Assembly (NCBI RefSeq): GCF_053078305.1
Contig: NZ_CP166875.1
DNA length: 64,000 nucleotides
From: a plasmid
Reading direction: 5' to 3' (one strand)
In this document: positions 9,285 through 35,335 of the stretch, piece by piece
Numbering within the stretch: the first letter of the stretch is position 1
Layout of the letters: each line of letters begins with the position of its first letter
Program-made: the position numbers and the translations under genes
The notes under the pieces: generated by a model
Told to the model about the DNA's origin: nothing
The model's input: the letters and a program-made list of their open reading frames with translations, nothing else
Databases searched by the model: none

Positions 9285-9645
9285 CGGGTCAGCCAGGTCA
9301 TTTCCCGGAGGAGCGAAGCTCCTTCTGCCGTCCGGGTCTTCGGGGATTTCCCCGCAGTGGACCTTTCCGATGGGGGCCCGTTTACCGCCTCACGGGACAG
9401 CTGTCCGGGGGCGGACGCAAAATTTTTAGCCGGGTTCATGGCTAAAAATTTTGTGGCCGGTGCATCTCACCCTGGACAGATGGAACGGGAGGGGGTTACG
9501 TCTGCCCCCTGGAAAGTCCACAGCGGGAAACAGGCCGCAGGGGTGGCGGCAGGAGGGAAGACTGCTGCGCCATCAGGCGCAGTTTCCTCACACACCGTCA
9601 GGTGTGCAGGGAGCGCAGGTCACGGCGCGACTGAAGAAAAACGAC
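9285..9645 (-). repeat. Repeat family A copy 1: GC-rich structured element (Frpo/ssi-like single-strand promoter candidate)
   Basis: Shares long near-identical blocks (ccgcagtggacctttccgatggg; cagctgtccgggggcggacgcaaaa; ggaaagtccacagcgggaaacaggccgcag) with copies at 12.7, 28.1 and 33.4 kb. Confidence 0.55.
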
Positions 9646-9719
9646 GGCACAACAATGGCATGTGGTGGTCACTGGCACACCACTCCCGCACAGGTGAAAA
9701 CAGAGAAAACCGCACGACA

Positions 9720-9830
9720 TTTACAACCAAAAAAAAGTGAAATTTCTTCACTTTTTCACGCTTATTTTTCGCGTTGATTTGGTGATTATGATGATAAAAT
9801 AAAGTGAAATTTTTTCACTTTTTCAAAGGT
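9720..9830. promoter_or_regulatory. Tandem palindromic operator-like sites (aaagtgaaa-N-tttcacttt, two copies) upstream of the HTH gene
   Basis: Two near-identical palindromes directly visible about 60 bp apart. Confidence 0.5.
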
Positions 9831-9835
9831 GTTTT

Positions 9836-10087
9836 ATGACCGGCTGGGAACTGCGAATCTGGCGAAAAAGCATGCTCTGGTCACGCGAAAAAGCGGCCAG
9901 AGAATTTGGCGTGACGCAGAGAACATGGCACGCCTGGGAAAATGCGGAACAGGTGGATGTCACCGTCTGGAGGACCACCCAGGCACTTTCAGTCCGTGAC
10001 CTGCTGCCTCACATGCAGGGGATGCGTAAGGCAGATATCATCAGGCGTCTGGAAAATGAACTGGGGGAAACGGCAGGGAATGTGTGA
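9836..10087 (+). CDS. Small HTH DNA-binding regulator
   Basis: 83 aa; helix-turn-helix-like segment (REKAAREFGVTQRTWHAWE); preceded by palindromic operators. Confidence 0.45.
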   Translation: MTGWELRIWRKSMLWSREKAAREFGVTQRTWHAWENAEQVDVTVWRTTQALSVRDLLPHMQGMRKADIIRRLENELGETAGNV

Positions 10088-10117
10088 GCGTGATTCACAG
10101 CCTGGCTGAATGCCAGG

Positions 10118-10387
10118 CTACTGCTCATCAGGAAACAGCTTTTTCAGTTCTTCACCGGAAAGTCCCGTGACCTCCTGAATCCGTTCCGGCGGCCAGCCTA
10201 TATCCCGCAGCCGGCAGGCTATTTCCCGCGCCACTTCAAGAACCCCTTGTTTAAAACCTTCTTTAAAACCTTCTTTAAAACCCTCGTCGAAACCTTTCTG
10301 TATAAGACGTTCTGCAATCGTCATGCTGTTTGCTCTGCTCCTGCTGGCAAAAAAGCCCGGGATTTTGCCGGGCTTTGTGGTTCTCAT
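10118..10387 (-). CDS. Small protein resembling the C-terminal domain of Rpn nucleases, with KEGF tandem repeats
   Basis: C-terminus (ACRLRDIGWPPERIQEVTGLSGEELKKLF) parallels the C-terminus of the adjacent Rpn protein; 12-bp tandem repeats in DNA. Confidence 0.5.
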   Translation of the reverse strand: MRTTKPGKIPGFFASRSRANSMTIAERLIQKGFDEGFKEGFKEGFKQGVLEVAREIACRLRDIGWPPERIQEVTGLSGEELKKLFPDEQ

Positions 10388-11301
10388 CAGTGAGTGATTT
10401 TCTTCAGTTCGTCATCGGAAAGTCCGGTAGCCTGCTTAATCTGCTCCGGCGTCATCCCCATTTTCTGAAGCTGGCACGCAATAGCCAGGGCTTTTTCAAG
10501 CGCTCCTTCCATGCGTCCTTCCATCCTGCCTTCCTGGCGACCTTTTTGCTCAAGACGTTCTGCGATAGTCATCAGTTTATCCTCATGCTGCGGCAGACGC
10601 TCAGCCAGCGCCCGCATAAATTCCGGTGATACAGAGTCCCCTGCGTTAACGATGTAATGAATCAGAACACGCACCTGTTCATCTGAAATTTCCACCATGA
10701 CCTGCGGGAGTTTGTCCAGCAGCTCCATCATGTCACGATGGCGGATATGCTTCATCAGCAGCGTCAGTGCGGCCATCCGGCGATGGTTCATGATTTCATT
10801 GTCATCAACGACAGTGATATCAACCAGCGGAAACGGCTTTGTGTATATTTTAGCCGCAAGAGCCGGATTCTCAAAACAGCCCAGCCAGTTCATGCTGTAC
10901 GGGTACGGGCTGCGCTCACCGTGATAGAACAGCACCGGAATCACCAGTGGCAACGTTTTGTGCTGCTCCAGATGTCTCTGCATCGCCGCCACACTGTAAC
11001 GTAACATGCGAAAAGGCATGTACAGATTTTCGGTGCTCTGGTGCTCGATGAGCGTATAAACATAGCCGTCTTCACCCCCGGTGGTTTTCACGCTCCAGAG
11101 GATATCGCTGGCGTACTGATGCAGGTCCGGCTCTACAAAGGTGGCGGGTTCCAGCTTCAGCGTGGACAGGTCGCACAACTGCCGGTACTCCGCAGGAAGA
11201 TGCAGTTCCAGAAAATCTCTGGCGACGTCGGGATTCGCCAGGAACGACCGGAACGCGGCATCATGCGGCGTGGGCGTTGTGGTGTTTTTCTTCTTACTCA
11301 C
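10387..11301 (-). CDS. Rpn-family recombination-promoting nuclease (YhgA-like PD-(D/E)xK)
   Basis: 304 aa; conserved Rpn N-terminal nuclease region (FLANPDVARDFLELHLP...TLIEHQS) recognised from memory. Confidence 0.7.
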   Translation of the reverse strand: MSKKKNTTTPTPHDAAFRSFLANPDVARDFLELHLPAEYRQLCDLSTLKLEPATFVEPDLHQYASDILWSVKTTGGEDGYVYTLIEHQSTENLYMPFRMLRYSVAAMQRHLEQHKTLPLVIPVLFYHGERSPYPYSMNWLGCFENPALAAKIYTKPFPLVDITVVDDNEIMNHRRMAALTLLMKHIRHRDMMELLDKLPQVMVEISDEQVRVLIHYIVNAGDSVSPEFMRALAERLPQHEDKLMTIAERLEQKGRQEGRMEGRMEGALEKALAIACQLQKMGMTPEQIKQATGLSDDELKKITH

Positions 11302-11762
11302 GGTTCCTCCATCAAATCAGCAGCATCGCAGCAATCATCGCCCAAATCCCCACAACCGAGAGGACAGCAATTGCGTTCAAAGCCATGACAACAATAGCCG
11401 CGTTCTGAGTCACGGCGTATTTCTTCAGCAATCTCTTCTGCGGAAAGGTAATCAAACTCCTCACGGGCCAGTTCCAGGACCAGTAGATGTTGTTCTGTCG
11501 GCAATGTGGCCACAAAATTATCAATAGCAGCACTCAAACGTCGCTGATATAGCTCATAAACAAGACCACAACGGGGCATTAGTTCTTCGGATAATAGTTC
11601 CAGTTTTGAGCGAATTCTGTCAGCGTTGAAAGTGACTTCATCAAAAGACATATGAAAAGCTTTGTCAGTATCAAAACAAGACTTCATTGTTATCTCCAGC
11701 CCTCCCGGGCCCTGAATGAAAGAGAATCTGTTTCCCTTTTCTGTTTTTTGTGGAGACACCAT
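11298..11762 (-). CDS. Hypothetical leading-region protein with Cys-rich C-terminus
   Basis: ORF in leading orientation; no recognised domain; true start may be internal. Confidence 0.35.
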   Translation of the reverse strand: MVSPQKTEKGNRFSFIQGPGGLEITMKSCFDTDKAFHMSFDEVTFNADRIRSKLELLSEELMPRCGLVYELYQRRLSAAIDNFVATLPTEQHLLVLELAREEFDYLSAEEIAEEIRRDSERGYCCHGFERNCCPLGCGDLGDDCCDAADLMEEP

Positions 11763-11863
11763 GCAACACAGACGTCGTGATGTTTTTCATCTTGCTCACG
11801 GTTCCTCCTGGTAAAGTACCTGAACACATCCTGCCACCTGCACAGGCAGACGGCAGGGGTTAA

Positions 11864-12130
11864 TCAGTGACAGACCCGTTCAATTTCAAGCGCGCGGAGC
11901 AGGTGGCCCCATTCGCTGACTTTCATGGCGGGGATACGTACCCGCTTCTGCTCACTGCAGCGTCTGGCGATATGACCGCCCATCGCCAGGACGTCCGGGT
12001 TAATCTCATCCGGTGCCAGTTCCTGGCGTCTGAAGCGGGTATGGCGGTGCAGGGGTTTATTCTCCCGCAGGCACTCTTCACGCAGACGCTTTACATACTC
12101 GGCGGTTGCGAAGATAATTGATGGTCTCAT
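11864..12130 (-). CDS. Hypothetical small leading-region protein
   Basis: Start refined to the internal ATG (MRPSIIF...); no recognised domain. Confidence 0.3.
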   Translation of the reverse strand: MRPSIIFATAEYVKRLREECLRENKPLHRHTRFRRQELAPDEINPDVLAMGGHIARRCSEQKRVRIPAMKVSEWGHLLRALEIERVCH

Positions 12131-12222
12131 GGCATAATCTCCATAGTTAGTGAATGAGATGCCGGACTTCCGTACGGGGAAGCGCCGGCGGAGAGAGGCA
12201 GGGTTTATCGCCCTGCTTTTTT

Positions 12223-12657
12223 TCATTCCGGACAGCGACGCAGTGCCAGCGCGAGCGCTTTCATCTTCCAGCCTTCCGGCGTGCGGTACATCACCTTCCA
12301 GTAGCCGTCGATGAACACATAATGGAAGCGCACCTCTTCAGTGCTTTCCGTGGCGATGGCCTCCCTGAAAGAACGGTACTCACGCGCCTCACTGTCCATC
12401 CGGAAACCACTGTCACGTCCGTAATAAGCCGTCACACCGTCCACCGGGTTCTGAAGCGTATGCCCGGCGGGTTTGTCGCAACGGGGACCGAGGCAACGGA
12501 TATCACCGTGTTCAACCAGGGCTTCGGCCTGCTGACCGGTGGCATAGTGGGTATGCAGGATGCGACCGTTCCAGGTCGGCTCACCGTGCAGGTGGCAGTA
12601 AACGGTACGGAACACCCCGTCGCGGCAAAAAACGGAAATCGTGCTGCTGACTGTCAT
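12223..12657 (-). CDS. Hypothetical leading-region protein (about 144 aa)
   Basis: Start refined to ATG at MTVSSTISVF; lies directly downstream of repeat A2. Confidence 0.4.
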   Translation of the reverse strand: MTVSSTISVFCRDGVFRTVYCHLHGEPTWNGRILHTHYATGQQAEALVEHGDIRCLGPRCDKPAGHTLQNPVDGVTAYYGRDSGFRMDSEAREYRSFREAIATESTEEVRFHYVFIDGYWKVMYRTPEGWKMKALALALRRCPE

Positions 12658-12689
12658 GAAAACGTCTCCTTCTGCTGAATCAGGTCGCC

Positions 12690-13210
12690 GGGCCGACCGA
12701 TTGCTCCCCCGGAGGGGCGAAAGCCCCTTCTGCCGTCCACTTCTTCGGGGTTTCTCCCCGCAGTGGACCTTTCCGATGGGGCAGCGACAGCCACGGCACG
12801 GGGCAGTTGTCCGGGGGCAGACGCAAAAGTTTTTGACGCTTGCGGCAAAAAGTTTTGTGGCTGGTACATCTCCCCCCTGGACGGCTGACACGTGTTGTGG
12901 CCGCTTCAGCCCCCGGAAAGTCCACAGCGGGAAACAGGCCGCAGGGGTGGCGGCGGAAGGGCAGACAACTGCGCCATCAGGCGCAGTTTCCTTACACACC
13001 GTCAGGTGTGCAGGGAGCGCAGGTCACGGCGCGACAGAGGCGGCGCGACCGGAACGGTCGCTGCAAGCCTGGTTTTTCAGACATCGGACCGTAGCGGCAG
13101 CCCGAAACCGCGCCAGCGGGTTCGGCGGAGACTGGCGGGTGCGCCAGCAGCTGCCTGTCGGAGTCGGGCCTGACGACCGGATGCCGCCAGGCAGCCGGGA
13201 GCCGAAGGTG
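12690..13210 (-). repeat. Repeat family A copy 2 (Frpo/ssi-like candidate)
   Basis: Shares conserved blocks with copies A1, A3, A4. Confidence 0.55.
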
Positions 13211-13388
13211 TCCCCGCCTCCGGAAATCAGAACAACAGAAACGACATAACAGAAAAATGCCTCACACCATGACGGGCAGGAAGGGCAGCGCCGCAGGCGC
13301 GGCCCTCCTGCATTTCAGGCAGGCGTAAGCCTGCCAGGGTTTTCCGGCGGCCTGGCAGGCCATACCCCCGCCGGAGCGGGGGAGTAAA

Positions 13389-13889
13389 TCACCGACGGAA
13401 CACATGACCGTCAATAAAGGTGAAGGAGTCCAGGAATAAATCCCGCGCATACGCCTCATAGTCAAAATAGAGCGCCACCGTCTCCGGCACGTCAGCCAGC
13501 AGGCCGGTATCACTGGCGAACTCAACCGCAAAAGCCTCCTCACTGTCAGCCTCGCCCCACCAGGCATCGCGGAAGCTGTCAAAATCCGTCTCACCGGTAT
13601 CATCCACCCAGAGACGATAAGCCTCTTCGCAGCCTTCATCCCGTGCCCGGCGGAAGCCTTCAACCCAGGCCCAGTTGATATGACATTCAGAGGCCATATT
13701 CCCCGGGAATCCCTCATAATCCTGAAACATCAGTTCAGGATCGGCTTCATCCTGGTGAAGAGCACGGCAGGCGGCGAAAAAGTCGCGCTCATCATCAAAC
13801 GTGGTCAGGTCAAACCAGCGTCCGGCGATGCTTCCACAGTTGTATTTGTGCCAGGTTCCAACGTATACAGCAGGTGCAACAACAGACAT
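13389..13889 (-). CDS. ardA: Antirestriction protein ArdA
   Basis: 166 aa from ATG at MSVVAPAVYVGTWHKYNCGSIAGRWFDLTTFDD; acidic C-terminal half; RBS-like sequence upstream. Confidence 0.9.
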   Translation of the reverse strand: MSVVAPAVYVGTWHKYNCGSIAGRWFDLTTFDDERDFFAACRALHQDEADPELMFQDYEGFPGNMASECHINWAWVEGFRRARDEGCEEAYRLWVDDTGETDFDSFRDAWWGEADSEEAFAVEFASDTGLLADVPETVALYFDYEAYARDLFLDSFTFIDGHVFRR

Positions 13890-13904
13890 TCCCGAATCCT
13901 CCAT

Positions 13905-14100
13905 AGTCACATGTTCTGCGACACCGGGCGGTGCCGTGCCTCCATCTTTGCCGGGCCTGCAGGGATGCAAGGGCGCAAGGAAAGCCGCAGCCCGACGCGC
14001 ACGGCTGACGGGAGTTGGAGGGTGAGACCGCGAAATCTGAGCGGGTGAACGACCGGAAAATCACGGCAGACGGGAAGGAGGGACCGGGTGACCGCAGCGG
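13905..14100 (-). repeat. Repeat family B copy 1 (upstream leader element of ardA)
   Basis: About 190 bp near-identical to 35140-35335, which sits upstream of the KlcA-like gene. Confidence 0.6.
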
Positions 14101-14302
14101 TTCATCTTACCTTGCAACCCGCCCGCAGAAGCCCGGCTACGATGGAGGCACGGCACAGCCCGCACACGACGCTGAGGCCACATAACTGAAAACCCACAAG
14201 GCCATGCCCCGCATGGCCGGGTAAAGCGGAGCCTGCGGCGACATCCTTTTGCTCTTTCCGGGGACCGGCTGGAAAAGGCGGAGATTTTCCCCGCCAGCGT
14301 CA

Positions 14303-15073: not shown

Positions 15074-15117
15074 AATTCATGAACTCCCTGTATCGCCGCC
15101 CGAAGGCGGCGATAACA

Positions 15118-15787: not shown

Positions 15788-16471
15788 TTACGCAGCCTCC
15801 GGCATAAACCAGTCATCATTCGCGGCCCCCTGCTGCATGGCCCGTTGTACGGCGGCAAGGCGTTGCTGCCCGGCACGGTGATACTGCTCAAGCAGCTCGA
15901 TACCGATATACCGGCGTCCGGACTGGAAGGCGGCCACGCAGGTTGAGCCGCTGCCTGCAAACGGGTCCAGCACAATTGCGTTCGGGTGTGTGAAGCTCTC
16001 AATCAGCGGTTGCAGGCTGGTAACGGGCTTTTCCGTCGGGTGATGACGATTGCCTGAATATTTCCAGCCCAGCACGTCCGGCAGCGGGTTTTGTGGCAGA
16101 CGTGGACGGCCTTTTGCCAGGATGTAGGCACATTCGTGGCGATAGCCCACATATGCGGCCTTCGATGTGTAGTTTTTGGTGAAGACCAGGTGACCAACAA
16201 CGCTGAATCCCGCATTTTTCCAGGCAGACATAAAACGATCGACGCGATTCCAGCCATAGAAGCTCACCATTAACGCGTCTTTTTTGAGTACGCGGTACAT
16301 CTCATTACAGGCCGGTTGCAGCCATTCATCGGTTTTATCGCCGGCAATGGTACGCCCCTGACGGTCACGAAAACCGACGAGGTACGGCGGGTCGGTGAGG
16401 ATGAAATCAATGGCGTTATCAGGGATACGGGCCATAACATCGATGCAGTTACCGAGGACAAAACGGGACAT
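15788..16471 (-). CDS. Orphan N6-adenine DNA methyltransferase (beta class)
   Basis: DPPY catalytic motif near N-terminus and FxGxG SAM-binding motif (DPFAGSGST) near C-terminus; no adjacent restriction gene. Confidence 0.8.
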   Translation of the reverse strand: MSRFVLGNCIDVMARIPDNAIDFILTDPPYLVGFRDRQGRTIAGDKTDEWLQPACNEMYRVLKKDALMVSFYGWNRVDRFMSAWKNAGFSVVGHLVFTKNYTSKAAYVGYRHECAYILAKGRPRLPQNPLPDVLGWKYSGNRHHPTEKPVTSLQPLIESFTHPNAIVLDPFAGSGSTCVAAFQSGRRYIGIELLEQYHRAGQQRLAAVQRAMQQGAANDDWFMPEAA

Positions 16472-16479: not shown

Positions 16480-16850
16480 CCTTCTCTTACAGAGGGCACC
16501 GGGAGGGCCCCCCTGTGGTGCCCGTTCCCCGCTGCCTGTGGGCTGTTCACCGCGTCCGGTAACGGGTCAGGCCGACCGTGGAATACCGCAGCCGTCGTCT
16601 TTTTGACGGCAAGGTTATGCCGCGAAAGCGGCTTGAAGGGCGTTCATCAGAAAAGGGCGACGGGCTGGCGTACACTGTCACCGGTGCCAGCCGGGAGCGG
16701 TAAAAGCGCCCGTCCCGTGCCCGGCCGGACGCGGGACACTGACCACAGGCAGCGTTTATGCCGCGCCGCGTCAGCCGGCGCAGTAAAAAGAGGAGCACGG
16801 CGACATCCTTTGTCGGAAAAGAAACGGGCGGTTGCCCGCCCGTCTCCGTC
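16480..16850 (-). repeat. Repeat family C copy 1 (about 330 bp GC-rich structured element)
   Basis: Near-identical to 17795-18125. Confidence 0.6.
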
Positions 16851-16855
16851 ATACT

Positions 16856-17782
16856 TCATCCGCCATAATGCGCCACCTTGTCGACTATCCACGCAGGTCC
16901 GGTGACTTCCGGCAGCTCATCGTCATCTGTCGGGGAAGACCATTCCAGTTCCCCCCACAGCACATCAACGAGCTCTCCGCGCTCATACAACTGCCAGCCA
17001 CAGAAATTGCAGCCCTGTTCGGCGTACCAGTGCTCCAGCGTGCAGCCGAAACGGCGGCTTAATTCTGCAACAACGTCGCTTTCCGGCTGACACCACGGCG
17101 TGTCGAAATCTACCTGAATGAAGTTTTCCCCCTGACTGCTGATATTCAGGTCATACCCACAAGGCCACTTCACGCCATACCGTTCTGTATACCAGTGATA
17201 TGCAGAAGGAACACCGTTCAGAACACCGCCGTTAAAGCCATTCACTTCAATATCCAGGCGGGTCGGCAAAACCGTCAGCAGGTCAAACGGCATGGTTTTT
17301 TCCGGCAGTACGTTGTCACACAGACGGTTCCACCACACCGATACATCCTCGTTACCCCAGATGTCACACCAGTCACCTCTTTTTGCGGTGAAATGCACAG
17401 TGATAGTTTCCCTGACATCATCCGGTAACTCTTCCCAGCGACGCTGTCCAGTACCGCTCTGCAGCCAGAGTTCATGCAGCATCAGGCAGTTTTGCTCATC
17501 CAGCAGTACACCGTTCTGCAGGTGTGTCAGCCAGCGGGTGAACGCGATATTTTCCGGTGATACAGCACCACGTCCGGCAGCCGTCACTCCGGGGCACTGC
17601 TCAGAGCGGATATTTTCAGTGATCTGCAGAAGTCCGGCACTTCCGGCCAGAAACAGCTGAATACCTTCATTTGTGGCGCGGCGATAAAACGGTGTGACTG
17701 CACCGCTGGCCAGTCGTTTAATCTCAGCAATCTGTGCCGGTTCACCAGAAAAATACATACGATTCGAGCACCAGTTTGGCAT
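16856..17782 (-). CDS. Hypothetical leading-region protein (DUF1281-like)
   Basis: Start refined to ATG at MPNWCSNRMYF; flanked on both sides by repeat family C. Confidence 0.45.
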   Translation of the reverse strand: MPNWCSNRMYFSGEPAQIAEIKRLASGAVTPFYRRATNEGIQLFLAGSAGLLQITENIRSEQCPGVTAAGRGAVSPENIAFTRWLTHLQNGVLLDEQNCLMLHELWLQSGTGQRRWEELPDDVRETITVHFTAKRGDWCDIWGNEDVSVWWNRLCDNVLPEKTMPFDLLTVLPTRLDIEVNGFNGGVLNGVPSAYHWYTERYGVKWPCGYDLNISSQGENFIQVDFDTPWCQPESDVVAELSRRFGCTLEHWYAEQGCNFCGWQLYERGELVDVLWGELEWSSPTDDDELPEVTGPAWIVDKVAHYGG

Positions 17783-17794: not shown

Positions 17795-18125
17795 CACAGG
17801 AGCACCGGGAGGGAGCCCCTGTGGCGCCCGTTCCCCGCTGCCTGTGGGCTGTTCACCGCGTCCGGTAACGGGTCAGGCCGACCGTGGAATACCGCAGCCG
17901 TCGTCTGTTTGACGGCAAGGTTATGCCGCGAAAGCGGCTTGAAGGGCGTTCATCAGAAAAGGGCGACGGGCTGGCGTACACTATCACCGACGCCAGCCGG
18001 GAGCGGTAAAAGCGCCCGTCCCGTGCCCGCCGGACGCGGGACACTGACCACAGGCAGCGTTTATGCCGCGCCGCGTCAGCCGGCGCAGTAAAAAGAGGAG
18101 CACGGCGACATCCTTTTCCCCTGAA
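17795..18125 (-). repeat. Repeat family C copy 2
   Basis: Near-identical to 16480-16850. Confidence 0.6.
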
Positions 18126-18388: not shown

Positions 18389-19360
18389 ATGATTAAGATA
18401 TTCTGTGATGATGGTTCTACAGCGGTTAAGCTGGCATGGTTTGAAAACGGGGAACTAAAAACCCTCATTAGTCACAATTCTTTCAAGGAAGGCTGGAACA
18501 CATCAGGATTTGGCAGTGAGAAAACTTATAATTACTTAGTCGATGGAGAGAAATATGCGTTTGATACACATAACCCATCAGCAATAGTCACAACCAATAT
18601 TGAGTTTCAATATAGTGTAGAAAATCGTCTCGCTGTACATCACGCACTACTACAAACAGGAATGGAGCCTGGGGATGTAGAGCTTTGGGTTACATTACCT
18701 GTATCTGAATATTTCACTACAGATATGCAAGAGAATTCGGATAACATAAGAAAAAAAATAGAAAACCTGAAAAAAGAAATTACACTGAATAAAGGCAGCG
18801 TATTTTCAATCAAGAAAGTTCATGTATTACCCGAGTCTCTACCTGCAGCGTTGACCTCTCTCGAAGAGGATAAAGTCAGTGATCTTGAAACGTCCCTTGT
18901 CGTCGATCTTGGTGGAACAACTCTTGATTGTGGCGCTATAGCTGGCAGATATAAAAATGTAACACAAGTATCCGGAGAACCTGGTCTTGGCGTAACTCTG
19001 GTAACAACGGCGACAATGAATGCCCTGAAACAGGCAGGAACGCATACCAGCTACTATATTGCAGATCAACTGGTTAGAAACAGAAATGCTGATGATTTAT
19101 TCGAAATTGTTGTTAATGACAGCAGTAAAATAGATGATGTGAAATCAGTAATTGAAAACAGTATTACAAGACTTTCAGACAGAGTTATAAATCATTTACA
19201 CTCGTACAAAGGGATAAATCGTATATACATGACTGGTGGTGGTGCGGAACTAATCTACCCTGCAATAAAAAAAGCATTCCCCTTATTAAAGGATAAAGTA
19301 AAAATTTTACCAGATGCGCAATTAGCCCTTGTTATTTCTATTGCTGAAATAAATCGATAA
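18389..19360 (+). CDS. parM: Actin-like segregation ATPase (ParM/StbA family)
   Basis: 323 aa; actin-fold phosphate motifs (DDGST; DLGGTTLD; MTGGGAE); RBS aagagga upstream. Confidence 0.75.
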   Translation: MIKIFCDDGSTAVKLAWFENGELKTLISHNSFKEGWNTSGFGSEKTYNYLVDGEKYAFDTHNPSAIVTTNIEFQYSVENRLAVHHALLQTGMEPGDVELWVTLPVSEYFTTDMQENSDNIRKKIENLKKEITLNKGSVFSIKKVHVLPESLPAALTSLEEDKVSDLETSLVVDLGGTTLDCGAIAGRYKNVTQVSGEPGLGVTLVTTATMNALKQAGTHTSYYIADQLVRNRNADDLFEIVVNDSSKIDDVKSVIENSITRLSDRVINHLHSYKGINRIYMTGGGAELIYPAIKKAFPLLKDKVKILPDAQLALVISIAEINR

Positions 19361-19923: not shown

Positions 19924-20033
19924 TTATTCAAAGAAAATCCCGGTCGAAGGGCCGGGATGTTTACACGTTAACCACCCTGCAATTCTGCCACTCCTGATGC
20001 GGAATAACAGGACAGGACCGGGAACAGTCAGGC

Positions 20034-23217: not shown

Positions 23218-23373
23218 TTTTAGTCTCACTTATCGTTTTTGACACTGCATGGTATCATAATGTACAAAATACGATTTTTGAAACCTGCTTTTATGCTGTT
23301 TTAGACAGGTATCAGATATCTTAATATTTGATACTAGCCATATTTAACAAATATTTAGCATTTTGGTAAATGT

Positions 23374-26300
23374 ATGCAGAAGTACAAGAAAAGAATTAGT
23401 ATATTAACAAAAAGTGAAATAAATGAATTATATCAAGTCCCCTCTTTTAATCCTGTTGAAAGGGATGAGTTTTTTTCGCTGGATATCAGCCTTAAAAGAG
23501 AAATTGATAAAATAATAAATATAGAAAGCAGGGTGTATCTGATATTAATAACAGGGTATTTCAGATATAAACCTGTGATTCCTGAATTTACATTAAAAGA
23601 CGTAAAAAGGGATGTGAAATATATTATCCAGACATATTATAAAAACGAAAGTACTAATCTCAATTTAAACATACCTAAAAGTACAAAGTACCGCCTTGTT
23701 AAACGAATGCTTTCTACTCTAGGATTTGAACAACTCACCCCATCTATAAAAAATGAGTTAAGTGAACGTCTGAATGATGTTGCTACTATATGTATGGAAC
23801 CAAAATATATTTTTGATGAATTACTTGCTTTTTTAGGACAGCGGCGTATAGCTCTTCCTGGATACAGTACTGTCCAGAACCTCGTTTCAGATGCTTTAAA
23901 CTTTGAAAGGAAAAGGACAATTAATATTTTGTCAAAGAGAATTTATCCTGCCACTGCACAAAAGATTACATCCATCATCCATGATGATGGAATATTAAAT
24001 TCCATCAGGGGATATAATTATAGCACGAGAGACTTCTCAGCATCAGAAATAGAAAATGAATTAAGAACTCACAATGTGATAAGTAGTATTTACTATGAAA
24101 TAAAAGATATAATTAATTCATTAGGTATATCCCAGGGAAACATGGAGTACTATGCAACTATCGTAAAACACAGTACAACATTCAGACTTAAGCGACACCC
24201 TAAATGGCAAGGAATACTTTATTTGTGCTGCTACTTGTACTTCAGATACAGAGAGATAAATGATAAAATAATCACAGCCTTCAGATATTTAGTAAAAAAA
24301 CATAAAGACGCTTCAGTTTTGTTTGCAAAAGCTCGGGCAACAGAGGAAATAGATCTAATAAATAAAAAGCTTAAGTTTGCGAGTAAAATATTTAACTTCT
24401 TCGTTGATAGTAACATTGAAGACAGCATCCCTTTTGGATATGTTCGTGAAAAGGTTTTTTCACTTATATCGAAAGATGATATGCATCTTGTGAGTGAATT
24501 TTTTGACAAAAATAAAATCGATGTAATTGAATATCAATGGCAGTATATTGACAGCCATCACCTTAAGATCGCCAATTCAATCCGAAAGCTTTTTCTGGCT
24601 ATAGATATAGTATATGACAACGAGAAGTCTGTTATTGGCCAGCAAATTACTGCTGCCAAGGATGATCTCAGAGGAAAAGGAAAGCTGGATGCTAAGGATC
24701 TGAGGGTAATTCATCCATCCGAGAAAAATTACATTGTAAAAGAAGGAGAAATTAACACTCAACGATTCGAATTTCATATGTACAGCAGGGTATCTAACCA
24801 TCTGGAAAACGGTGTCTTTTATGCTGCGGAGAGTGAACAAAACAAGAGACTGGAAGATGATCTCATAGAACGAAGTTACTGGCATAAGAATAAATCGATT
24901 TTGATAGAGAAAACAGGCCTTGAACGACTTATCACACCAATAACGCAGACTCTTAATGAGCTGGAGAATACCTTTAGCGATAAACTGGCTCGTATAACCA
25001 TTGGAATAAACTCAGATGCTAATGAGTTTGTGAAAAAACAACCACACTCCAACAGATTACAGTGGAGTCTGGCCAGTAAAAAATGGAAGACCAGCATCGA
25101 TAATCCGATTTACAATCAGATAAAAAATATCGGAATAGTTGACGTAATGAAGTATGTAAACAATGAGACGAATTTTTTGTCTGTGTTTAATGCCATATCA
25201 TCCAGGAAAAATAATCTTGAAGCTGACTATAATGACCTTCTTGCCTGTATATTTGGTAATGGCGCAAATTATGGTGTTCACAGAATGGCATCTGCATCAG
25301 ACCGTAGTATTGGAATACTACGTGATGTGAATGACAAATTCATTCGTCCAGAAACAACAGGAATGGCCAACACAGTAATATCTGATGCAATTGCAAATCT
25401 TTCTGTATATAAATACTGGACGATAAATGAAGATTCTCCATTTGGAAGTGTTGATGGGCAGAAGCACACTTGCAGAATAAATACATTTAAAGCCCGTTAT
25501 TCTGCCAAGTATTTCAGAAAGGGGAAAGGGGTTTCTGCGATGACACTGGTATCTAATCATGTGCCATTATCAACTGTGGTAATTTCTCCAAATGAATATG
25601 AAGGTCATTTTGCATTTGACTTGTTATATAACAACACCAGTGAAATACAACCAAAGTCATTAGCGACTGACAATCATGGTATAAACAACGTTAATTTTGC
25701 GATTCTTGACATTTTTGGCTATCAGTTTTCACCACGTTATGCAAAATTCAAGAAAATATTTAATGAATTATTTGATGTTATACTGGAGAGTGATAAACTC
25801 ATTATAAAACTTAAAAAACAATTTAACTTTAAGCTCATTGAACATGAATGGGAAAACATCCAACATATTATTTGTTCTTTAAGCAGAAAAACAACCATTC
25901 AAAGTACGGTTGTTAAGAAGTTATCTAATACAAAGCGTAGCAACAAGACATTAGCAGCACTTCGGGAGTATGACCGAGTTATAAAATGCATATATGTCCT
26001 GGATTATGCTGACAATAAAACCTTAAGGCAATTTGTGCAACAAGCACTGAACAGAGGTGAAGCTTATCATCAACTAAGAAGAGCAATAGCATCAGTAAAT
26101 GGAAATCAATTTCGCGGTGGTAATGACTACCAAATAGATCAATGGAACGACTGTGCGAGGTTAATAGCTAATTGTGTAATCTATTATAATTCAGCAATAT
26201 TATCCAGGCTGGTCGAGAAATTTGAAAAAGAAAATAATAAAAAAGCGATAGATGTTCTGGCTAACTTATCCCCAGTAGCATGGAGACACATTCTCCTTGG

Positions 26301-26412
26301 AGGGAATTATTCTTTTGAAGATCAAGTTGCGATCACAAATTTGGACAGTCTTTTGGAGGGAGTAGACCCACTAAGTGATATCGGAGATATTGAGTCCGAA
26401 TATGACGGTTAA
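23374..26412 (+). CDS. tnpA: Tn3-family DDE transposase
   Basis: 1012 aa, size and organisation typical of Tn3-family TnpA; AT-rich codon usage unlike the backbone. Confidence 0.8.
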   Translation: MQKYKKRISILTKSEINELYQVPSFNPVERDEFFSLDISLKREIDKIINIESRVYLILITGYFRYKPVIPEFTLKDVKRDVKYIIQTYYKNESTNLNLNIPKSTKYRLVKRMLSTLGFEQLTPSIKNELSERLNDVATICMEPKYIFDELLAFLGQRRIALPGYSTVQNLVSDALNFERKRTINILSKRIYPATAQKITSIIHDDGILNSIRGYNYSTRDFSASEIENELRTHNVISSIYYEIKDIINSLGISQGNMEYYATIVKHSTTFRLKRHPKWQGILYLCCYLYFRYREINDKIITAFRYLVKKHKDASVLFAKARATEEIDLINKKLKFASKIFNFFVDSNIEDSIPFGYVREKVFSLISKDDMHLVSEFFDKNKIDVIEYQWQYIDSHHLKIANSIRKLFLAIDIVYDNEKSVIGQQITAAKDDLRGKGKLDAKDLRVIHPSEKNYIVKEGEINTQRFEFHMYSRVSNHLENGVFYAAESEQNKRLEDDLIERSYWHKNKSILIEKTGLERLITPITQTLNELENTFSDKLARITIGINSDANEFVKKQPHSNRLQWSLASKKWKTSIDNPIYNQIKNIGIVDVMKYVNNETNFLSVFNAISSRKNNLEADYNDLLACIFGNGANYGVHRMASASDRSIGILRDVNDKFIRPETTGMANTVISDAIANLSVYKYWTINEDSPFGSVDGQKHTCRINTFKARYSAKYFRKGKGVSAMTLVSNHVPLSTVVISPNEYEGHFAFDLLYNNTSEIQPKSLATDNHGINNVNFAILDIFGYQFSPRYAKFKKIFNELFDVILESDKLIIKLKKQFNFKLIEHEWENIQHIICSLSRKTTIQSTVVKKLSNTKRSNKTLAALREYDRVIKCIYVLDYADNKTLRQFVQQALNRGEAYHQLRRAIASVNGNQFRGGNDYQIDQWNDCARLIANCVIYYNSAILSRLVEKFEKENNKKAIDVLANLSPVAWRHILLGGNYSFEDQVAITNLDSLLEGVDPLSDIGDIESEYDG

Positions 26413-26478
26413 CAACATGATAAATAATGGTTTTTATGCTAAGAGTGAGACTTTTGGAGGAAATGGGCGCAGAACCCC

Positions 26479-26702
26479 TGTATCTGCCGTTCGGTTTTTG
26501 CACGAAGTTTTTCTGAGCTTTTACCGAACTGCATACGTTGCAGTTTCGCAACCAGCGCCTTCAGCCGGTTGATTTCGGAAGCATAAGCCGCCACCCGCTG
26601 TGAGAGCAGGCGGTTGTATTCAGCCATCTGGCGGATGGTGTCCTGTTGCGTCTGCAACAGTGCCCGCAGGCGGGCGTTCTCATGAGCAAGTGAGGTGTCC
26701 AT
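26479..26702 (-). pseudogene. IS66-family transposase TnpC, N-terminal fragment
   Basis: MDTSLAHENARLRALLQ... N-terminus typical of IS66 TnpC; reading frame continues into the transposon inverted repeat. Confidence 0.7.
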
Positions 26703-26721
26703 ATCCTCACTTTACAACGGG

Positions 26722-27069
26722 TTATATGCGGATTCCAGCGCGTTCCGTTCGTTTCGGGTGCTTCCAGTTGATACCTTCAAGAAGCATGGATAACTGAGCC
26801 GGAGTAAGGTGCACCTTGCCGTCACGGGTGACTGGCCAGACGAAGCGGCCCCGCTCCAGGCGTTTGGTGAAGAGGCACAGTCCGTCACTGTCAGCCCACA
26901 ACACTTTTATCTGGTCACCCCGGCGTCCGCGGAAGATGAACAGGTGTCCGGAGAACGGGTCATCCTTCAGGACGTTCTGAACTTTTGATGCCAGGCCGTT
27001 AAAGCCATTTCGCATATCGGTGATACCTGCAACCAGCCAGATACGCGAACCTGCAGGGAGAGATATCAT
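26722..27069 (-). CDS. IS66-family accessory protein TnpB (orfB)
   Basis: 115 aa with conserved IS66 orfB sequence (WLVAGITDMRNGFNGLA...). Confidence 0.75.
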   Translation of the reverse strand: MISLPAGSRIWLVAGITDMRNGFNGLASKVQNVLKDDPFSGHLFIFRGRRGDQIKVLWADSDGLCLFTKRLERGRFVWPVTRDGKVHLTPAQLSMLLEGINWKHPKRTERAGIRI

Positions 27070-27746
27070 CAGTGGCTGCTCCCTTTTATTTCGCGGATAA
27101 GTGTCTGTAATAACGCCGGCGTCAGTTTACCTTTAAGCCTGAGAGTTCCGGCCGGCAGAACCAGCTCACAACACAGACTGTCGGACGGTGTATTTATCTG
27201 CTCTGGTTCCTGTGCGGGGGCCGGGATTTTATTATCCGGCTCCGGCGTTAACGTCACGGGAAGCAGTGCCGGCATATTTTTTCCGGAAGGCAGCAGGCCA
27301 CCTTTCCGGTATTGATGGCGCCAGTTGAAGAGCAGGTTATCGTTGATTCCGTTTTCCCGGGCGATCTGCGCCACACAGGCTCCGGGCTGCAGTGACTGCT
27401 CCACTAAGGCGATTTTAAACTCATAAGGGAAGTTGGGCCGCCGGGGACGTTTTTTTACCACGGGGGCTTCGGATATAACGGTGCTTTCAGGACGTACGAC
27501 TGGTACCGTGGAAAATTGTCCGTAAAGGCAGGCATCAAGTTCCTGCTCCGACATGCCTGCGGGCAAAGGCCACGAAAGGCCAGCTCTCCGAAAGCGCACG
27601 AACATACTACAAACTGTTGATTTTGGTACACCCAGGCGACGCCCGGCCACAACCCGGGGTAAATGTTCTTCAAAGTGAAGACGTAAAGCTTCAGTGATCC
27701 AGGTCCGGTGTTTCATACGATAGTGTCCATTAAAAATGATGGACAT
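27069..27746 (-). CDS. IS66-family accessory protein TnpA (orfA), extended form
   Basis: Contains the conserved KRPRRPNFPYEFKIALVEQSLQPGA...NLLFNWRHQYR block. Confidence 0.7.
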   Translation of the reverse strand: MSIIFNGHYRMKHRTWITEALRLHFEEHLPRVVAGRRLGVPKSTVCSMFVRFRRAGLSWPLPAGMSEQELDACLYGQFSTVPVVRPESTVISEAPVVKKRPRRPNFPYEFKIALVEQSLQPGACVAQIARENGINDNLLFNWRHQYRKGGLLPSGKNMPALLPVTLTPEPDNKIPAPAQEPEQINTPSDSLCCELVLPAGTLRLKGKLTPALLQTLIREIKGSSH

Positions 27747-27997
27747 TATTTTTGTAGAGCCGGAGGAAACAGACCAGACGGTTTAAATGAGCCGGTTACA
27801 AACAAATTCGCTTCATAAATTTCATAGTGCAGACCACATCCCCAATGAGCCTGCTTTTCCAGCCTGCTGATCACCACATCAGCCCGGATAACATCAAAGG
27901 GATTGCGGGAATGAATATTACGAATAAAGCCATCGGTACGTGCTGCTGACATATTTCTGCCCATCTTTAATACACCTCTGTTTTTTGCCCCCATCAT
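27746..27997 (-). CDS. Hypothetical protein, possibly 3'-truncated by the IS66 insertion
   Basis: ORF ends exactly where IS66 orfA begins; located downstream of repeat A3. Confidence 0.25.
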   Translation of the reverse strand: MMGAKNRGVLKMGRNMSAARTDGFIRNIHSRNPFDVIRADVVISRLEKQAHWGCGLHYEIYEANLFVTGSFKPSGLFPPALQK

Positions 27998-28089
27998 CTG
28001 TTGAGTTTCGGGAGCCGCGGTTTTGACGTTTTGCGGGGACCTGCCTTTTGTTCCCTCCGGTATTCACCATCACCTGTTTGAGAACCTTC

Positions 28090-28490
28090 GCCGCAAGGGG
28101 CATCACTGCCACGGCCGGAAACGACTGTCCGGGGGCAGACCGCAAAAGTTTTTGCCTGCTTTTGGGCAAAAAGTTTTGCGGGATGTGCATTTCACCCCTG
28201 GACTGGCGGAGACGGTTGTGGCTGTCTTTGCCCCCGGCGACAGGGGCTTAAACAGGTGTATGGCACCGGACACAACAACGGGCAGGGACCCGCCGCAACG
28301 ACGAAGAGCGCGTGCGCGAAACGGCGTTGCCCCTTACATCCCGGCGGCCTTTTGCCGGGATGCCAGGAGCGCAGGCCACGGCGCGACAGAGGCGGCGCGA
28401 CCGGAACGGTCGCTGCAAGCCCGGGGTTTCGCGTCAGGGATGGAAGCCCGCCAGGGCGGAGACAGCTTCGCTGGCTCCGTTCACGACAGC
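28090..28490 (-). repeat. Repeat family A copy 3 (partial, more divergent)
   Basis: Shares the ctgtccgggggcagac...gcaaaagttttt and ggcgcgaccggaacggtcgctgcaagcc blocks. Confidence 0.5.
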
Positions 28491-28856: not shown

Positions 28857-29015
28857 CTACTTACCGGATTCGTAAGCCATGAAAGCCGCCACCTCCCTGT
28901 ATCCGTCTCTGTAACGAATCTCGCACAGCGATTTTCGTGTCAGATAAGTAAATATCAACAGTGTGAGACACACAATCAACACACACCAGACAAGAGAGCT
29001 GCGTGGTAGTTTCAT
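28857..29015 (-). CDS. hok: Hok/Gef-family type I toxin (FlmA/Hok-like)
   Basis: 52 aa [52 protein letters not shown]; adjacent to psiA. Confidence 0.85.
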
Positions 29016-29289
29016 GGCCTTCTTCTCCTTGCGCAAAGCGCGGTAAGAGGCTATCCTGATGTTGTCAGACATATGGGATGCCTCGTGGGTTAATGAAAAA
29101 TTAACTACGGGGCTATCTTCTTTCTGCCACACAACACGGTAACAAACCACCTTCACGTCATGAGGCAGAAAGCCTCAAGCGCCGGGCACATCATAGCCCA
29201 TATACCTGCACGCTGACCACACTCACTTTTCCTGAAAATAACCCGCTCATTCAGGCTGTTTACGGGTAATCTGTGTGATTGTTGCCGCA

Positions 29290-30443: not shown

Positions 30444-30494
30444 GGTATCTCCCTTGCTGCCGCCCCGTCTCCGGCGGGGCGGTGTGGTTGTTCA

Positions 30495-32513: not shown

Positions 32514-32518
32514 CTCTC

Positions 32519-32794
<276 letters not shown>

Positions 32795-32809
32795 TCACAG
32801 TCAGGCCAG

Positions 32810-33337
32810 TCAGAACGGGATATCGTCTGAAAATCCGTAATCCTCCCCCTCCGGCGGCTGAGGCTGAGGCTCGGGCTGCGCGGCCTTACGTCCACGGCCT
32901 TTCGTTTTCGCGCCACTTTTTTTCGTCGCGTCAGCACTCTGTGGCTGCCCATTCTGCTGAGGCTGCGGTTGTGCCTGAGCGTTCTGCTGTGGTGCAATCC
33001 CCAGCATCTGCATGGTGCCCGTGGTCTTAACAAGAATTTCAGTGACGTAACGGGTGATACCGTTATCTTCCCAGCTACGGGTTCGGAGTTGCCCCTCGAT
33101 ATAGACCTGCGCGCCCTTGCGCAGATATTCACCAGCCACTTCCGCGAGCTTGCCGAACAGCACCACGCGGTGCCATTCCGTCTGCTCCCGCATCTCCCCC
33201 GTCTTTTTGTCGCGCCAGCTTTCTGATGTGGCCACCTGCAGGTTTGCCACTGCGCCCCCGTTGGGGATGTAACGGACCTCCGGATCATTGCCCAGACGCC
33301 CGACGAGGATGACCTTGTTGATACCACGTGCACTCAT
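32810..33337 (-). CDS. ssb: Plasmid single-stranded DNA-binding protein
   Basis: 175 aa; OB-fold N-terminus, Gln/Pro-rich linker and C-terminal acidic tail DDIPF. Confidence 0.9.
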
Positions 33338-33394
33338 GAGAACCTCCTGACTGAAAGATGTGAGATAAACCGGATACCGGAGACGGGACGTTCA

Positions 33395-33850
33395 TATGCC
33401 CCTTCAGAGGAGCGAAAGCTCCTCCTGCCGTCCACTTCTTCGGGGTTTCTCCCCGCAGTGGACCTTTCCGATGGGGGCCCGTTTACCGCCTCACGGGACA
33501 GCTGTCCGGGGGCGGACGCAAAATTTTTTGCCGGGTTCATGGCTAAAAATTTTGTGGCCGGTATATCTTCCCCTGGACTGATGGAACGGGAGGTGGTTAC
33601 GTCTGCCCCCCGGAAAGTCCACAGCGGGAAACAGGCCGCAGAGGTGGCGGCAGAAGAGGAGCGCAGGCCACGGCGCGACAAAGGCGGCGCGACCGTTCCG
33701 GTCGCTGCAAGCCCGGGTTTTCACGCATCGGACCGTAGCGACAGCCCGAAACCGCGCCAGCGGGTTCGGCGGAGACTGGCGGGTGCGCCAGCAGTTGCCT
33801 GTCGGAGTCGGGCCTGACGACCGGATGCCGCCAGGCAGCCGGGAGCCGAA
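33395..33850 (-). repeat. Repeat family A copy 4 (upstream of ssb)
   Basis: Nearly identical to copy A1 over about 250 bp. Confidence 0.6.
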
Positions 33851-34037
33851 GGGGCGCATGTGTAAGAAGGTTCTTTAACGACAGGTCTGTAACAGGTACT
33901 TCCTGAAACAACGCCTGTCACCAACAGGAAGGGTAACGGGCGACGCGCCAGCGTGGCCCGCATCCCTTCCGGCAGGCGCCAGCCTGCCAGGGGTTTTCGC
34001 GCGGGCTGACAGGCGGCCTCCACCGCCTACCCCTGTA

Positions 34038-34229
34038 TCACCTGTGCCTGCTGCCCTGAAGGATGTAGTGACCACCGAGGAAAACCGCCTGCTGATTCGC
34101 CACAAAATCACAGATTTCATCAACAATCTGCGCGGTGGTGAGCGGTTTCTGCCCCATTTCACGACGCCGCGCATTAATCACGGCTTTGTAATTGCGCAGA
34201 ATTTCGCGGGTTTCCGTGCTGATATTCAT
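34038..34229 (-). CDS. Hypothetical small protein
   Basis: 63 aa ORF in leading orientation. Confidence 0.3.
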   Translation of the reverse strand: MNISTETREILRNYKAVINARRREMGQKPLTTAQIVDEICDFVANQQAVFLGGHYILQGSRHR

Positions 34230-34648
34230 TACCCGTTCTCCCCGTCCAGCGCCTGACGCATTACCCGCATAATCTCACGTTCTTCCCTGACAAATGCGTC
34301 ACCGTCGCCCCCGTTCTCGCTCCCTACAGCATGGAGGCGATAAATTTCACTACCAGCCATCACCATCACTTTTTCCAGCAGCACCGCAGGGACTGTTACA
34401 AGACGGTTTACGCGCTTTTCCTCCATCAGTTCATTGACAATATCGGAAACAACTCTGTCACATGCGCCATATACAAAAGCATCGTCCAGCCGCTGCATGA
34501 CGGTTTCCAGCTCATCGTCTGACAGGTTCCAGTCCCGGGCTATGTGGCGCACATCCCCGCGGGTCAGCACCACGGCAAAAACACATTCACTGTCCGGCAC
34601 GTCTGTATTCAGCACTTCGCGGATAATTTCTTTAACAGTACAGTACAT
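34229..34648 (-). CDS. Hypothetical leading-region protein, paralog of 15118-15552 (DUF1380-like)
   Basis: Shares start and RxVTVPAxLL region with the first copy. Confidence 0.45.
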   Translation of the reverse strand: MYCTVKEIIREVLNTDVPDSECVFAVVLTRGDVRHIARDWNLSDDELETVMQRLDDAFVYGACDRVVSDIVNELMEEKRVNRLVTVPAVLLEKVMVMAGSEIYRLHAVGSENGGDGDAFVREEREIMRVMRQALDGENG

Positions 34649-34694
34649 GTTCTCGTCTCCTTTACAGGGGCGGCATTGCCGCCCCGTCCGTTAA

Positions 34695-35120
34695 TCAGTC
34701 CAGTGCCGCGTAAATCGCGTTACATTCGGGGTGAAATTCGATGTGGCTCCACAACTGCGCATCGCGCATCCGGTAAAGCTGGGTCAGTCCTGCATCCCCG
34801 CTGTCGTGGTACAGCCACAACTGGCGGTTAATCACAAGGGAAGTCAGGATGATACCTGCGGCATCAGCACTCACAGTGCGGTCAAACCAGTTTTCACCGT
34901 TGACCAGATGAAAACGGTCGCCATCCGGCATCATGTAACCGCCACCGTCCGGCAGGCGGATGAAATGCCAGAAGCCTCCCTGATATTCCGGCATCATTTT
35001 TTGCGCCAGCGCGTACACATACGCCTCGGCATACAGAAAATCGTTGCCAAACAGGTAAGGCAGAAAGGAGAGACGGTCGCACTCTTCAACGTTCAGAGTG
35101 ACAGATTTCGCATACTGCAT
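34695..35120 (-). CDS. Antirestriction protein, KlcA/ArdB family
   Basis: 141 aa from ATG at MQYAKS with RBS ggagg; family assignment from memory; preceded by repeat B2. Confidence 0.6.
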
Positions 35121-35139
35121 GGGATTTCCTCCGTTGTTC

Positions 35140-35335
35140 ACATATTCCGCGACACCGGGCGGTGCCGTGCCTCCAGAAAAGCCGGGCGATAAGGCGGGGA
35201 TGCAAGGGCGCAAGGGAAGCCGCAGCCTGACGCACACGGCTGGCGGGAGTTGGAGGGTGAGACCGCGAAATCTGAGCGGGTGAACGACCGGAAAATCACG
35301 GCAGACGGGAAGGAGGGACCGGGTGACCGCCGCGT
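35140..35335 (-). repeat. Repeat family B copy 2 (upstream leader element of the KlcA-like gene)
   Basis: Near-identical to 13905-14100. Confidence 0.6.

Follow-up and report, generated by a model that had tools for sequence, protein, structure and literature searches.

Probable copies of three known classes of single-stranded DNA promoter among the GC-rich repeats of a mosaic plasmid leading region

INTRODUCTION

The leading regions of enterobacterial plasmids carry single-stranded DNA promoters, of which three classes have been described. In this work we have examined a stretch of 64,000 nucleotides (nt) of plasmid DNA (NCBI RefSeq assembly GCF_053078305.1, contig NZ_CP166875.1; the whole stretch is called the window below), which contains eight GC-rich repeats of three families, A, B and C, close to leading-region genes such as ardA, ssb and a klcA-like gene. 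The best described relatives of these repeats are found in plasmid pESBL, where, within 15 min of transfer, six operons rise in expression by up to about 500-fold, each being preceded by a hairpin-forming segment and each having a start site placed by 5' rapid amplification of cDNA ends (5' RACE) (PMC12672017, Nucleic Acids Research 2025). Using RNA sequencing and 5' RACE, that study defined class 1 as ssi1-3, homologous to Frpo of plasmid F, class 2 as two mutually similar elements, 5' of ardA and of klcA, and class 3 as a single element 5' of the methylase gene M.EcoGIX; classes 2 and 3 are described there as conserved in F. Deletion of Frpo1 and Frpo2 abolishes early expression of the genes that lie downstream (PMC9849209). 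A 2026 preprint names the classes ssp1, ssp2 and ssp3, and reports that F ssp2 (class 2) stalls complementary-strand synthesis until it is resolved by UvrD, and that ssp1 transcripts prime strand conversion in vivo (10.64898/2026.01.09.698686).

Our results show that families A, B and C coincide with the published classes 1, 2 and 3, respectively, and it is very probable that the repeats are copies of these three known classes of single-stranded DNA promoter. Since they match published, experimentally characterised elements, the finding is in this sense already known. The window carries in addition a hybrid and a truncated class 2 copy, a second class 3 copy, and leading-region genes of two plasmid lineages.

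RESULTS

The repeats were found by a direct-repeat search, and each copy was then compared by BLAST with the whole window. Family A has four copies (A1 to A4, at 9304-9634, 12689-13208, 28097-28430 and 33384-33852), of which A1 and A4 are 93% identical over 250 nt (E 1e-104), A1 and A2 83% identical over 334 nt, and A2 and A3 68% identical over 340 nt (E 6e-24). The two copies of family B (B1, 13897-14099; B2, 35127-35334) share 89% identity over 208 nt (E 2e-75), and the two of family C (C1, 16496-16811; C2, 17802-18116) share 97.5% over 316 nt (E 2e-153), the E-values of the repeats thus lying between 6e-24 and 2e-153. Beyond these eight, BLAST of the window with each copy revealed no copies of family A, B or C. 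The G+C content is 60-68% in the scan windows containing the repeats. An earlier note on this DNA, made from the letters alone, had described three GC-rich families with these copy numbers, all on the 5' side of minus-strand genes; both statements were borne out, the second for all eight copies, which lie 20-130 nt from a start codon and in the correct orientation. The same note saw family C as flanking the gene at 16856-17782; C2 is placed 5' of this DUF1281 gene, and C1 does more than flank it, being directly 5' of the methylase gene. The copies, with the class to which each is assigned and the gene downstream of it, are:

9285..9640, + strand: A1, class 1 (ssi/Frpo type), recognised by its fold, strand asymmetry and ssi alignment; 5' of the DUF4942 gene (8408-9259, minus strand)
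12689..13208, + strand: A2, class 1, core hairpin 12731-12955 and then a conserved 3' extension, located downstream of ardA; 5' of a hypothetical gene (12223-12657, minus strand)
13897..14248, + strand: B1, complete class 2 unit; 5' of ardA (13389-13889, minus strand)
16496..16811, + strand: C1, class 3, main stem 16530-16753; 25 nt 5' of the ATG of the M.EcoGIX-type methylase gene (15788-16471, minus strand)
17802..18116, + strand: C2, second full class 3 copy, main stem about 17836-18058; 20 nt 5' of the ATG of the DUF1281 gene (16856-17782, minus strand)
28060..28440, + strand: A3, class 1, F Frpo1 type; 5' of a ygeA-like open reading frame (ORF) (27746-27997, minus strand) that abuts IS66 genes
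33384..33852, + strand: A4, class 1, core hairpin 33418-33662 plus 3' extension; 5' of ssb (32810-33337, minus strand) and its operon ssb-DUF905-parB-psiB-psiA (33337 down to 29290, minus strand)
35127..35338, + strand: B2, truncated class 2, 5' arm and central part only; 5' of the klcA-like gene (34695-35120, minus strand)

Gene names were taken from annotated relatives because NCBIfam, run on the leading-region ORFs, named only Rpn and IS66 proteins. No Rfam family covering the repeat elements was found in a search of that database; the elements occur in unannotated intergenic DNA of at least 5000 plasmids, from several genera.

For comparison with the described systems we used pESBL (NC_018659, IncI1) and F (NC_002483), whose corresponding intergenic regions were aligned, together with the reference sequences of PMC11541004 and its supplement 4. 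Identity of the copies to characterised elements is 80-98%. The earlier proposal that the repeats are of the Frpo/ssi type holds for family A, all four copies of which align with F Frpo and ssi (80-98% to the nearest reference), whereas families B and C form separate classes that are not Frpo homologues. Over 254 nt, A3 shares 98.0% identity with F Frpo1; for A4, compared with the ssi copy at ssb in pESBL, the figure is 90.5%, and A1 and A2 match pESBL ssi copies at 80-87%, the homology to F Frpo or ColIb-P9 ssi running in every case across a unit of roughly 330 nt. The ygeA-like ORF next to A3 is shorter than its F counterpart (83 amino acids versus 95). Past the published 328-nt unit a conserved extension is found in A2, A3 and A4 (13014-13208, 28361-28430 and 33658-33852) and is missing from A1; about 200 nt of it are common to A2 and A4. 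One hairpin of this extension, CGACCGGAACGGTCG, recurs in the diverged Salmonella sequences given in supplement 4 of Samuel et al., and the extension by itself forms a strong fold, with a scan peak at window starts 33620-33770.

In family B, the klcA copy does not repeat the second hairpin arm, and the true unit at ardA thus extends as far as 14248. B1, with its 5' arm starting at about 13926 and its 3' arm ending at about 14161, is 88% identical to the pESBL and F class 2 elements over about 265 nt, both hairpin arms included, and 98% identical to the IncK copy. Within the 3' part of the B1 unit there is a terminator-like hairpin with a U-rich tail (14195-14213, minus sense), and each class 2 unit may serve both as terminator of the operon upstream and as promoter of the one that follows. 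C1 is 97.1% identical to the pESBL element 5' of M.EcoGIX and 95% identical to the F copy. The methylase operon is served by C1, and the DUF1281 gene by C2, the extra copy. The DNA upstream of the DUF1281 gene in pESBL is unrelated (46% identity in the alignment); the two-copy arrangement is also present in pDW54_2 and other plasmids, amounting to at least 18% of the best-matching records.

Which strand enters the recipient was deduced from the transfer genes in the left part of the window:

4690-7410, minus strand: nikB, of the IncI-type relaxase pair
7422-7754, minus strand: nikA, of the same pair
7837-7846, + strand: oriT nick region CACATCCTGT, IncI-type (R64-like), adjoining nikA, placed by reading the sequence and by synteny

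This placement agrees in synteny with the oriT/nikAB of pESBL and with IncK plasmids, and the nick would lie within ATCCTG/T, as reportedly described by Furuya & Komano 1991. Since CACATCCTGT is on the + strand, the + strand is the transferred one and enters 5' to 3' towards higher coordinates; from the position of oriT, the leading region begins at about 7.85 kb and extends in the same direction. The + strand is the template for the minus-strand leading genes, as in pESBL and F. The nearest backbones are those of IncK2/Z plasmids: NZ_LR890274 is 98% identical across 3000-14248 of the window, and pDW54_2 is 99.8% identical around 17.4-18.4 kb.

The published homology-free scan was repeated on the + strand from 7.5 to 38 kb (300-nt windows, 10-nt steps, free energy (dG) < -75 kcal/mol). 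It returned A1, A2, B1, C1, C2, A3 and A4, together with the 3' extension of A4 and one weak, borderline site inside parB, and these seven copies are the strongest hairpins of the transferred strand, with z scores from -9.1 to -3.8. An imperfect stem of roughly 110 bp is present in all four A copies: A1 folds at -102.9 kcal/mol (z -9.1), A2 is the strongest hairpin of the scan (-103 kcal/mol per 300 nt), A3 peaks at -93.5 kcal/mol, and A4 peaks at window starts 33330-33500 and 33620-33770. B1 (z -4.05; best 300-nt window -79.8 kcal/mol) has the long-range closing stem, with TAnnnT inside an internal loop of the 3' arm. C1 (-106.9 kcal/mol, z -6.1) is a scan peak, C2 has a z score of -3.8, and both pass the threshold. 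For B2, in contrast, no long hairpin was obtained (z -1.8; best 300-nt window -51.5 kcal/mol). In class 1 the + strand folds 11-18 kcal/mol better than the minus strand (13.9 kcal/mol for A1, 17.9 kcal/mol for A2), and several of the commonest class 1 pairs are G-T, which become C-A mismatches on the other strand.

Diverged sequences given by Samuel et al. 2024 (Supplementary file 4), of Serratia and of an insect-gut metagenome, were added to the alignments for an examination of the conservation of the structures. In class 1, 95.7% of cells are paired, versus about 50% with slid partners, and 11 pairs have changed on both sides, versus 2-4. In class 2 the figures are 94.9% versus 33-42% of cells paired and 17 versus 1-6 pairs changed on both sides, and none of 500 shuffles reached the observed values by any measure. 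The conserved transferred-strand structure that the earlier note expected is thus found in seven copies, with covariation in classes 1 and 2, but not in B2, which does not fold.

The same note suggested looking for hairpins that reconstitute -35 and -10 boxes, and such boxes were clear only in class 2. All nine class 2 sequences, two of which are only about 50% identical overall, have GCCCGGCTAnnnT unchanged on the 3' arm. In B1, TAnnnT reads TACGAT (14138-14143, -10-like) and lies mostly in the conserved internal loop, and the paired TTGnnn reads TTGCAA (14112-14117, -35-like); in class 2 generally TTGnnn stands 15-20 nt upstream of TAnnnT. The spacer of the IncK variant, to which B1 belongs, is 20 nt on the 3' arm, compensated by a shorter 5' arm, and in the pESBL/F variant this is reversed (15 nt, with a longer 5' arm), from which we infer that the mean helical spacer distance stays near 17. 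With this geometry the 3' arm would be the non-template and the 5' arm the template strand, and transcription would leave the base of the stem towards ardA.

For classes 1 and 3 no confident boxes were recognised in silico. Class 1 has a conserved, paired TGGAC(A/T/G) within a CCTGGAC / TGTCCGGGG block, which is a plausible -35 candidate. Hexamers of classes 1 and 3 close to the tip, in bulges and in the lower stem were also considered as boxes, and none was convincing. Matches to conventional duplex promoters are not enriched in the leading region, and none was found 5' of ardA, ssb, klcA or the methylase gene.

The two class 2 copies bear the marks of recombination. The 5' flank of B1 is of the ardA-side type, its 3' flank and the genes past it are of the klcA-side type, and the two blocks of homology to the IncK plasmid overlap exactly on the 352-bp unit 13897-14248. 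Judged from these sequences, B1 is a recombinant of ardA-side and klcA-side class 2 copies, and the hybrid flanks and the exact overlap point to recombination between class 2 direct repeats that deleted the native psiA-psiB-parB-ssb-klcA module together with ssi3. The B1-type junction was seen in 27 of the 5000 best-matching plasmids, and an analogous recombination between class 1 repeats was described in 2013 (PMC3817090). In duplex form the repeats would also act as recombination substrates, being direct repeats.

A second copy of the deleted module is present at 28-35.3 kb, in an F-type leading fragment that is colinear with F (Frpo1-type A3, hok/sok, psiA, psiB, parB, ssb, A4, klcA), has retained its orientation, so that the + strand is still the template, and is joined to the IncK backbone via Tn3-family and IS66 genes. 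At its far end lies B2, which retains about 208 nt: its homology to all other class 2 copies ends at about 35334, before the 3' arm, the 3'-arm motif GCCCGGCTA was looked for downstream of it and not found, and the DNA past the break is an IncF nuclease region. The B2 junction (about 35334) occurs in none of the best 5000 matching plasmids. B2 is predicted to be inactive. The features of this part of the window are:

26722-27746: IS66 TnpA/TnpB, abutting the ygeA-like ORF
29013-29184 (minus strand) and 36828-36984 (+ strand): two sok antitoxin RNAs (Rfam)
35428-35570 (minus strand): AS-pc02 (Rfam)
35732-36208: nuclease gene
37784-37874 (minus strand): CopA-like replication-control RNA (Rfam)

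The sok, CopA-like and AS-pc02 RNAs and the nuclease gene indicate that an IncFII-type replicon adjoins B2. The stretch that separates the IncK backbone from the F-type fragment (22636-27746) encodes a serine recombinase, a 1012-amino-acid Tn3-family transposase and the IS66 TnpA/TnpB proteins.

Class 2 and class 3 copies also share an edge. The 12-nt motif GGCGACNTCCTT is present three times in the window (14237-14248, 16799-16810 and 18104-18115, versus 0.02 expected), at the transferred-strand 3' edge of B1, C1 and C2, and the homology from copy to copy ends directly after it. In the stretches of IncK plasmids, pESBL and F that we retrieved, all class 2 and class 3 copies bear GGCGACNTCCTT, and it is confined to them. 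The three copies in the window read GGCGACATCCTT, the variable base being A, and contain ACATCCT, the core of the IncI nick region. Class 3 is described as unlike the other hairpins in PMC12672017, and the accessible part of its text does not mention a shared boundary motif. That class 2 and 3 units are mobile 'promoter cassettes' with a defined functional edge is an idea we regard as quite improbable; if GGCGACNTCCTT were a site for a strand-specific enzyme (relaxase-like, or another single-strand nuclease or recombinase), the modular gain and loss of leading-region operons would be site-specific and not merely due to homologous recombination between repeats.

Some other features of the window may be mentioned. 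Past the leading region, 18389-22183 is IncK/Z backbone; encoded there are a ParM-like protein, a stability protein, a protein of 528 amino acids that has a UvrD-like helicase domain, and a member of the ProQ/FinO family. That the plasmid itself carries a UvrD-like helicase is of note because host UvrD has been reported to resolve the class 2 hairpin. Two A/T-rich repeats of 30 nt (AAAAnAAAGTGAAATTTnTTCACTTTTTCA), both with an inverted repeat inside, lie at 9729-9825, just 5' of a helix-turn-helix regulator gene, and a looser third copy is found at 23406-23435; these repeats may be operator sites.

9836-10087, plus strand: helix-turn-helix regulator gene

DISCUSSION

In this work we have compared the repeats of a plasmid leading region with the single-stranded DNA promoters described in related plasmids. 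The analysis establishes homology, strand, position and folding, as well as covariation for classes 1 and 2. We propose that, as the + strand enters the recipient, each element would fold into a long imperfect hairpin whose stem mimics duplex promoter DNA, at which the host sigma-70 RNA polymerase would initiate, transcribing towards lower coordinates; synthesis of the complementary strand would then remove the hairpin and turn the promoter off. A1 would drive the DUF4942 gene, A2 the hypothetical genes from 12657 downwards, B1 ardA, C1 the methylase, DUF1380 and neighbouring genes, C2 the DUF1281 gene, A3 the ygeA-like remnant, and A4 ssb, parB, psiB and psiA. The repeats had been taken in the earlier note as marks of the genes expressed first in the recipient, and this does not extend to B2: as it has lost the completing 3' arm and forms no hairpin, the klcA-like gene is predicted not to be induced by a single-stranded DNA promoter.

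Promoter activity, early expression and shut-off in duplex DNA are attributed to the window's elements by analogy with the published work on their homologues. Several observations weigh against the proposal. Scans of the transferred strand for the sigma-70 consensus, taking the pairing state into account, found no conserved canonical promoter in class 1 or class 3, and the sequence 17-18 nt past the candidate -35 of class 1 is not conserved (TACGTC in A1 and A4, CGCTTC in A2; TGTCTT also occurs). The difference in stability between + and minus strands is just 1-4 kcal/mol in classes 2 and 3. In class 3 the homologues retrieved are all at least 95% identical, too alike to show covariation; in a search for diverged copies by way of the methylase protein, the matches listed were at least 92% identical. 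Finally, A3 and A4 lie 20-26 kb from oriT, which bears on how long they would stay single-stranded.

Could the elements have another role? They might be mainly replication signals on the incoming strand, either ssi priming sites or roadblocks that delay complementary-strand synthesis. DNA synthesis can be primed in vitro by Frpo transcripts, and it was as ssi sites that the elements were originally isolated (review PMC7690428); the stalling at F ssp2 until UvrD acts and the priming of conversion by ssp1 transcripts in vivo (10.64898/2026.01.09.698686) also speak for such a role. The two roles are not exclusive, and priming itself amounts to transcription from the same promoter. Against replication as the main role speak the loss of downstream-gene expression on deletion of Frpo1 or Frpo2 (PMC9849209), the mRNA 5' ends mapped at all six pESBL elements (PMC12672017), and the position of every copy in the window at 20-130 nt 5' of a start codon and in the right orientation; we therefore consider replication as the main role unlikely. 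Nor do we think that the structures act in RNA, as a 5' untranslated region, an attenuator or a small RNA, a reading to which we give very little weight. It is true that the transcript would include part of each hairpin, that B1 has a terminator-like hairpin towards its 3' end, and that in the DNA folds the GGAG of the 3' flank pairs with CTCC, the complement of the downstream gene's Shine-Dalgarno sequence. But there is no Rfam match, the mRNA is expected to carry only one hairpin arm because of the class 2 promoter geometry proposed above, and the G-T pairs of class 1 would be C-A mismatches in the mRNA sense, the + strand being 11-18 kcal/mol more stable. Action at the RNA level was rejected on this strand asymmetry.

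The idea that the repeats are inert duplications with no function of their own, be they scars left by recombination or what remains of mobile elements, is likewise very improbable. Copies are indeed found where the mosaic is joined, as in the hybrid B1, the truncated B2 and C2, which stands at the leading region's edge, and IS66 and Tn3 genes are nearby; against this, the elements are conserved in intergenic DNA of at least 5000 plasmids of several genera, compensatory changes have preserved their stems, which contradicts the idea, and they are homologous to experimentally active elements. It is barely credible, finally, that the conserved sequence encodes small proteins, even if RefSeq annotates 'hypothetical protein' ORFs over family C and part of family A; such ORFs cover the class 3 element of pESBL, of F and of IncK plasmids, as well as one ssi copy of an IncK locus. 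Substitutions in the C1 ORF are not biased towards the third codon position (the counts per position, all small, are 1/1/2, 4/2/2 and 4/5/3), and on this ground coding by family C was rejected; moreover, the ORFs over C1 and C2 differ in length and start, and the hairpin accounts for the sequence.

What do single-stranded DNA promoters mean for a plasmid of this kind? According to the published biology, such elements set the first minute of a plasmid in its new host, timing the expression of genes for anti-restriction, SOS inhibition and methylation, on which it depends whether a resistance plasmid withstands the host defences. Locally, this plasmid adds a truncated class 2 promoter, the deletion of the ssb-psiB-klcA module, an F-type copy of that module acquired at another place on the plasmid and a class 3 copy belonging to DUF1281, and these features are natural variants with which the contribution of each promoter class can be tested. 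The points specific to the window (the dead class 2 copy, the module deletion, the mixed IncK and F-type sets and the boundary motif of classes 2 and 3) are predictions, and they are modest additions to what is known.

Compared with F Frpo1/Frpo2 (ssiD; ssp1a/ssp1b) and with ssi1-3 of ColIb-P9/pESBL, the class 1 copies show the same full-length alignment, the same hairpin of roughly 110 bp with an A/T-rich tip and the conserved TGTCCGGGG / CCTGGAC block, and they share the transferred-strand orientation and the place 5' of ssb and other leading genes. Unlike in those plasmids, the four copies belong to two lineages, two to the IncK backbone and two to the F-type fragment, in which only A3 has the F Frpo1 sequence type, A4 being of the ColIb/pESBL ssi type. 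The native ssb-proximal class 1 copy of the IncK backbone has been deleted, and, relative to the Frpo/ssi elements, about 80 nt are missing from A4, which correspond to two small hairpins on the 3' side of the main stem.

Similarly, B1 has the same long-range stem as the class 2 elements 5' of ardA and klcA in pESBL (PMC12672017) and F ssp2 5' of yfgB, with the invariant GCCCGGCTAnnnT, TAnnnT in the internal loop and the same downstream genes. It differs in being the IncK sequence variant and an ardA/klcA hybrid, with its hexamers 20 nt apart on the 3' arm instead of 15; B2, without a 3' arm and predicted to be dead, is unlike the pESBL copies. In class 3, C1 shares with the pESBL element and F ssp3 both its hairpin and its place 5' of the methylase gene, and the second full copy, C2, 5' of the DUF1281 gene, is unlike pESBL.

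More distant parallels come from phages and rolling-circle plasmids. The minus-strand origins of the filamentous phages M13 and f1 and the single-strand origins (sso) of rolling-circle plasmids are single-stranded DNA hairpins recognised by RNA polymerase as a promoter. The filamentous-phage elements and the sso yield a short primer only and are not known to drive mRNA for downstream genes. They have no known sequence relationship to the elements of the window and are alike in mode, and a comparison of the leading-region elements with sso has likewise been made in a review (PMC7690428).

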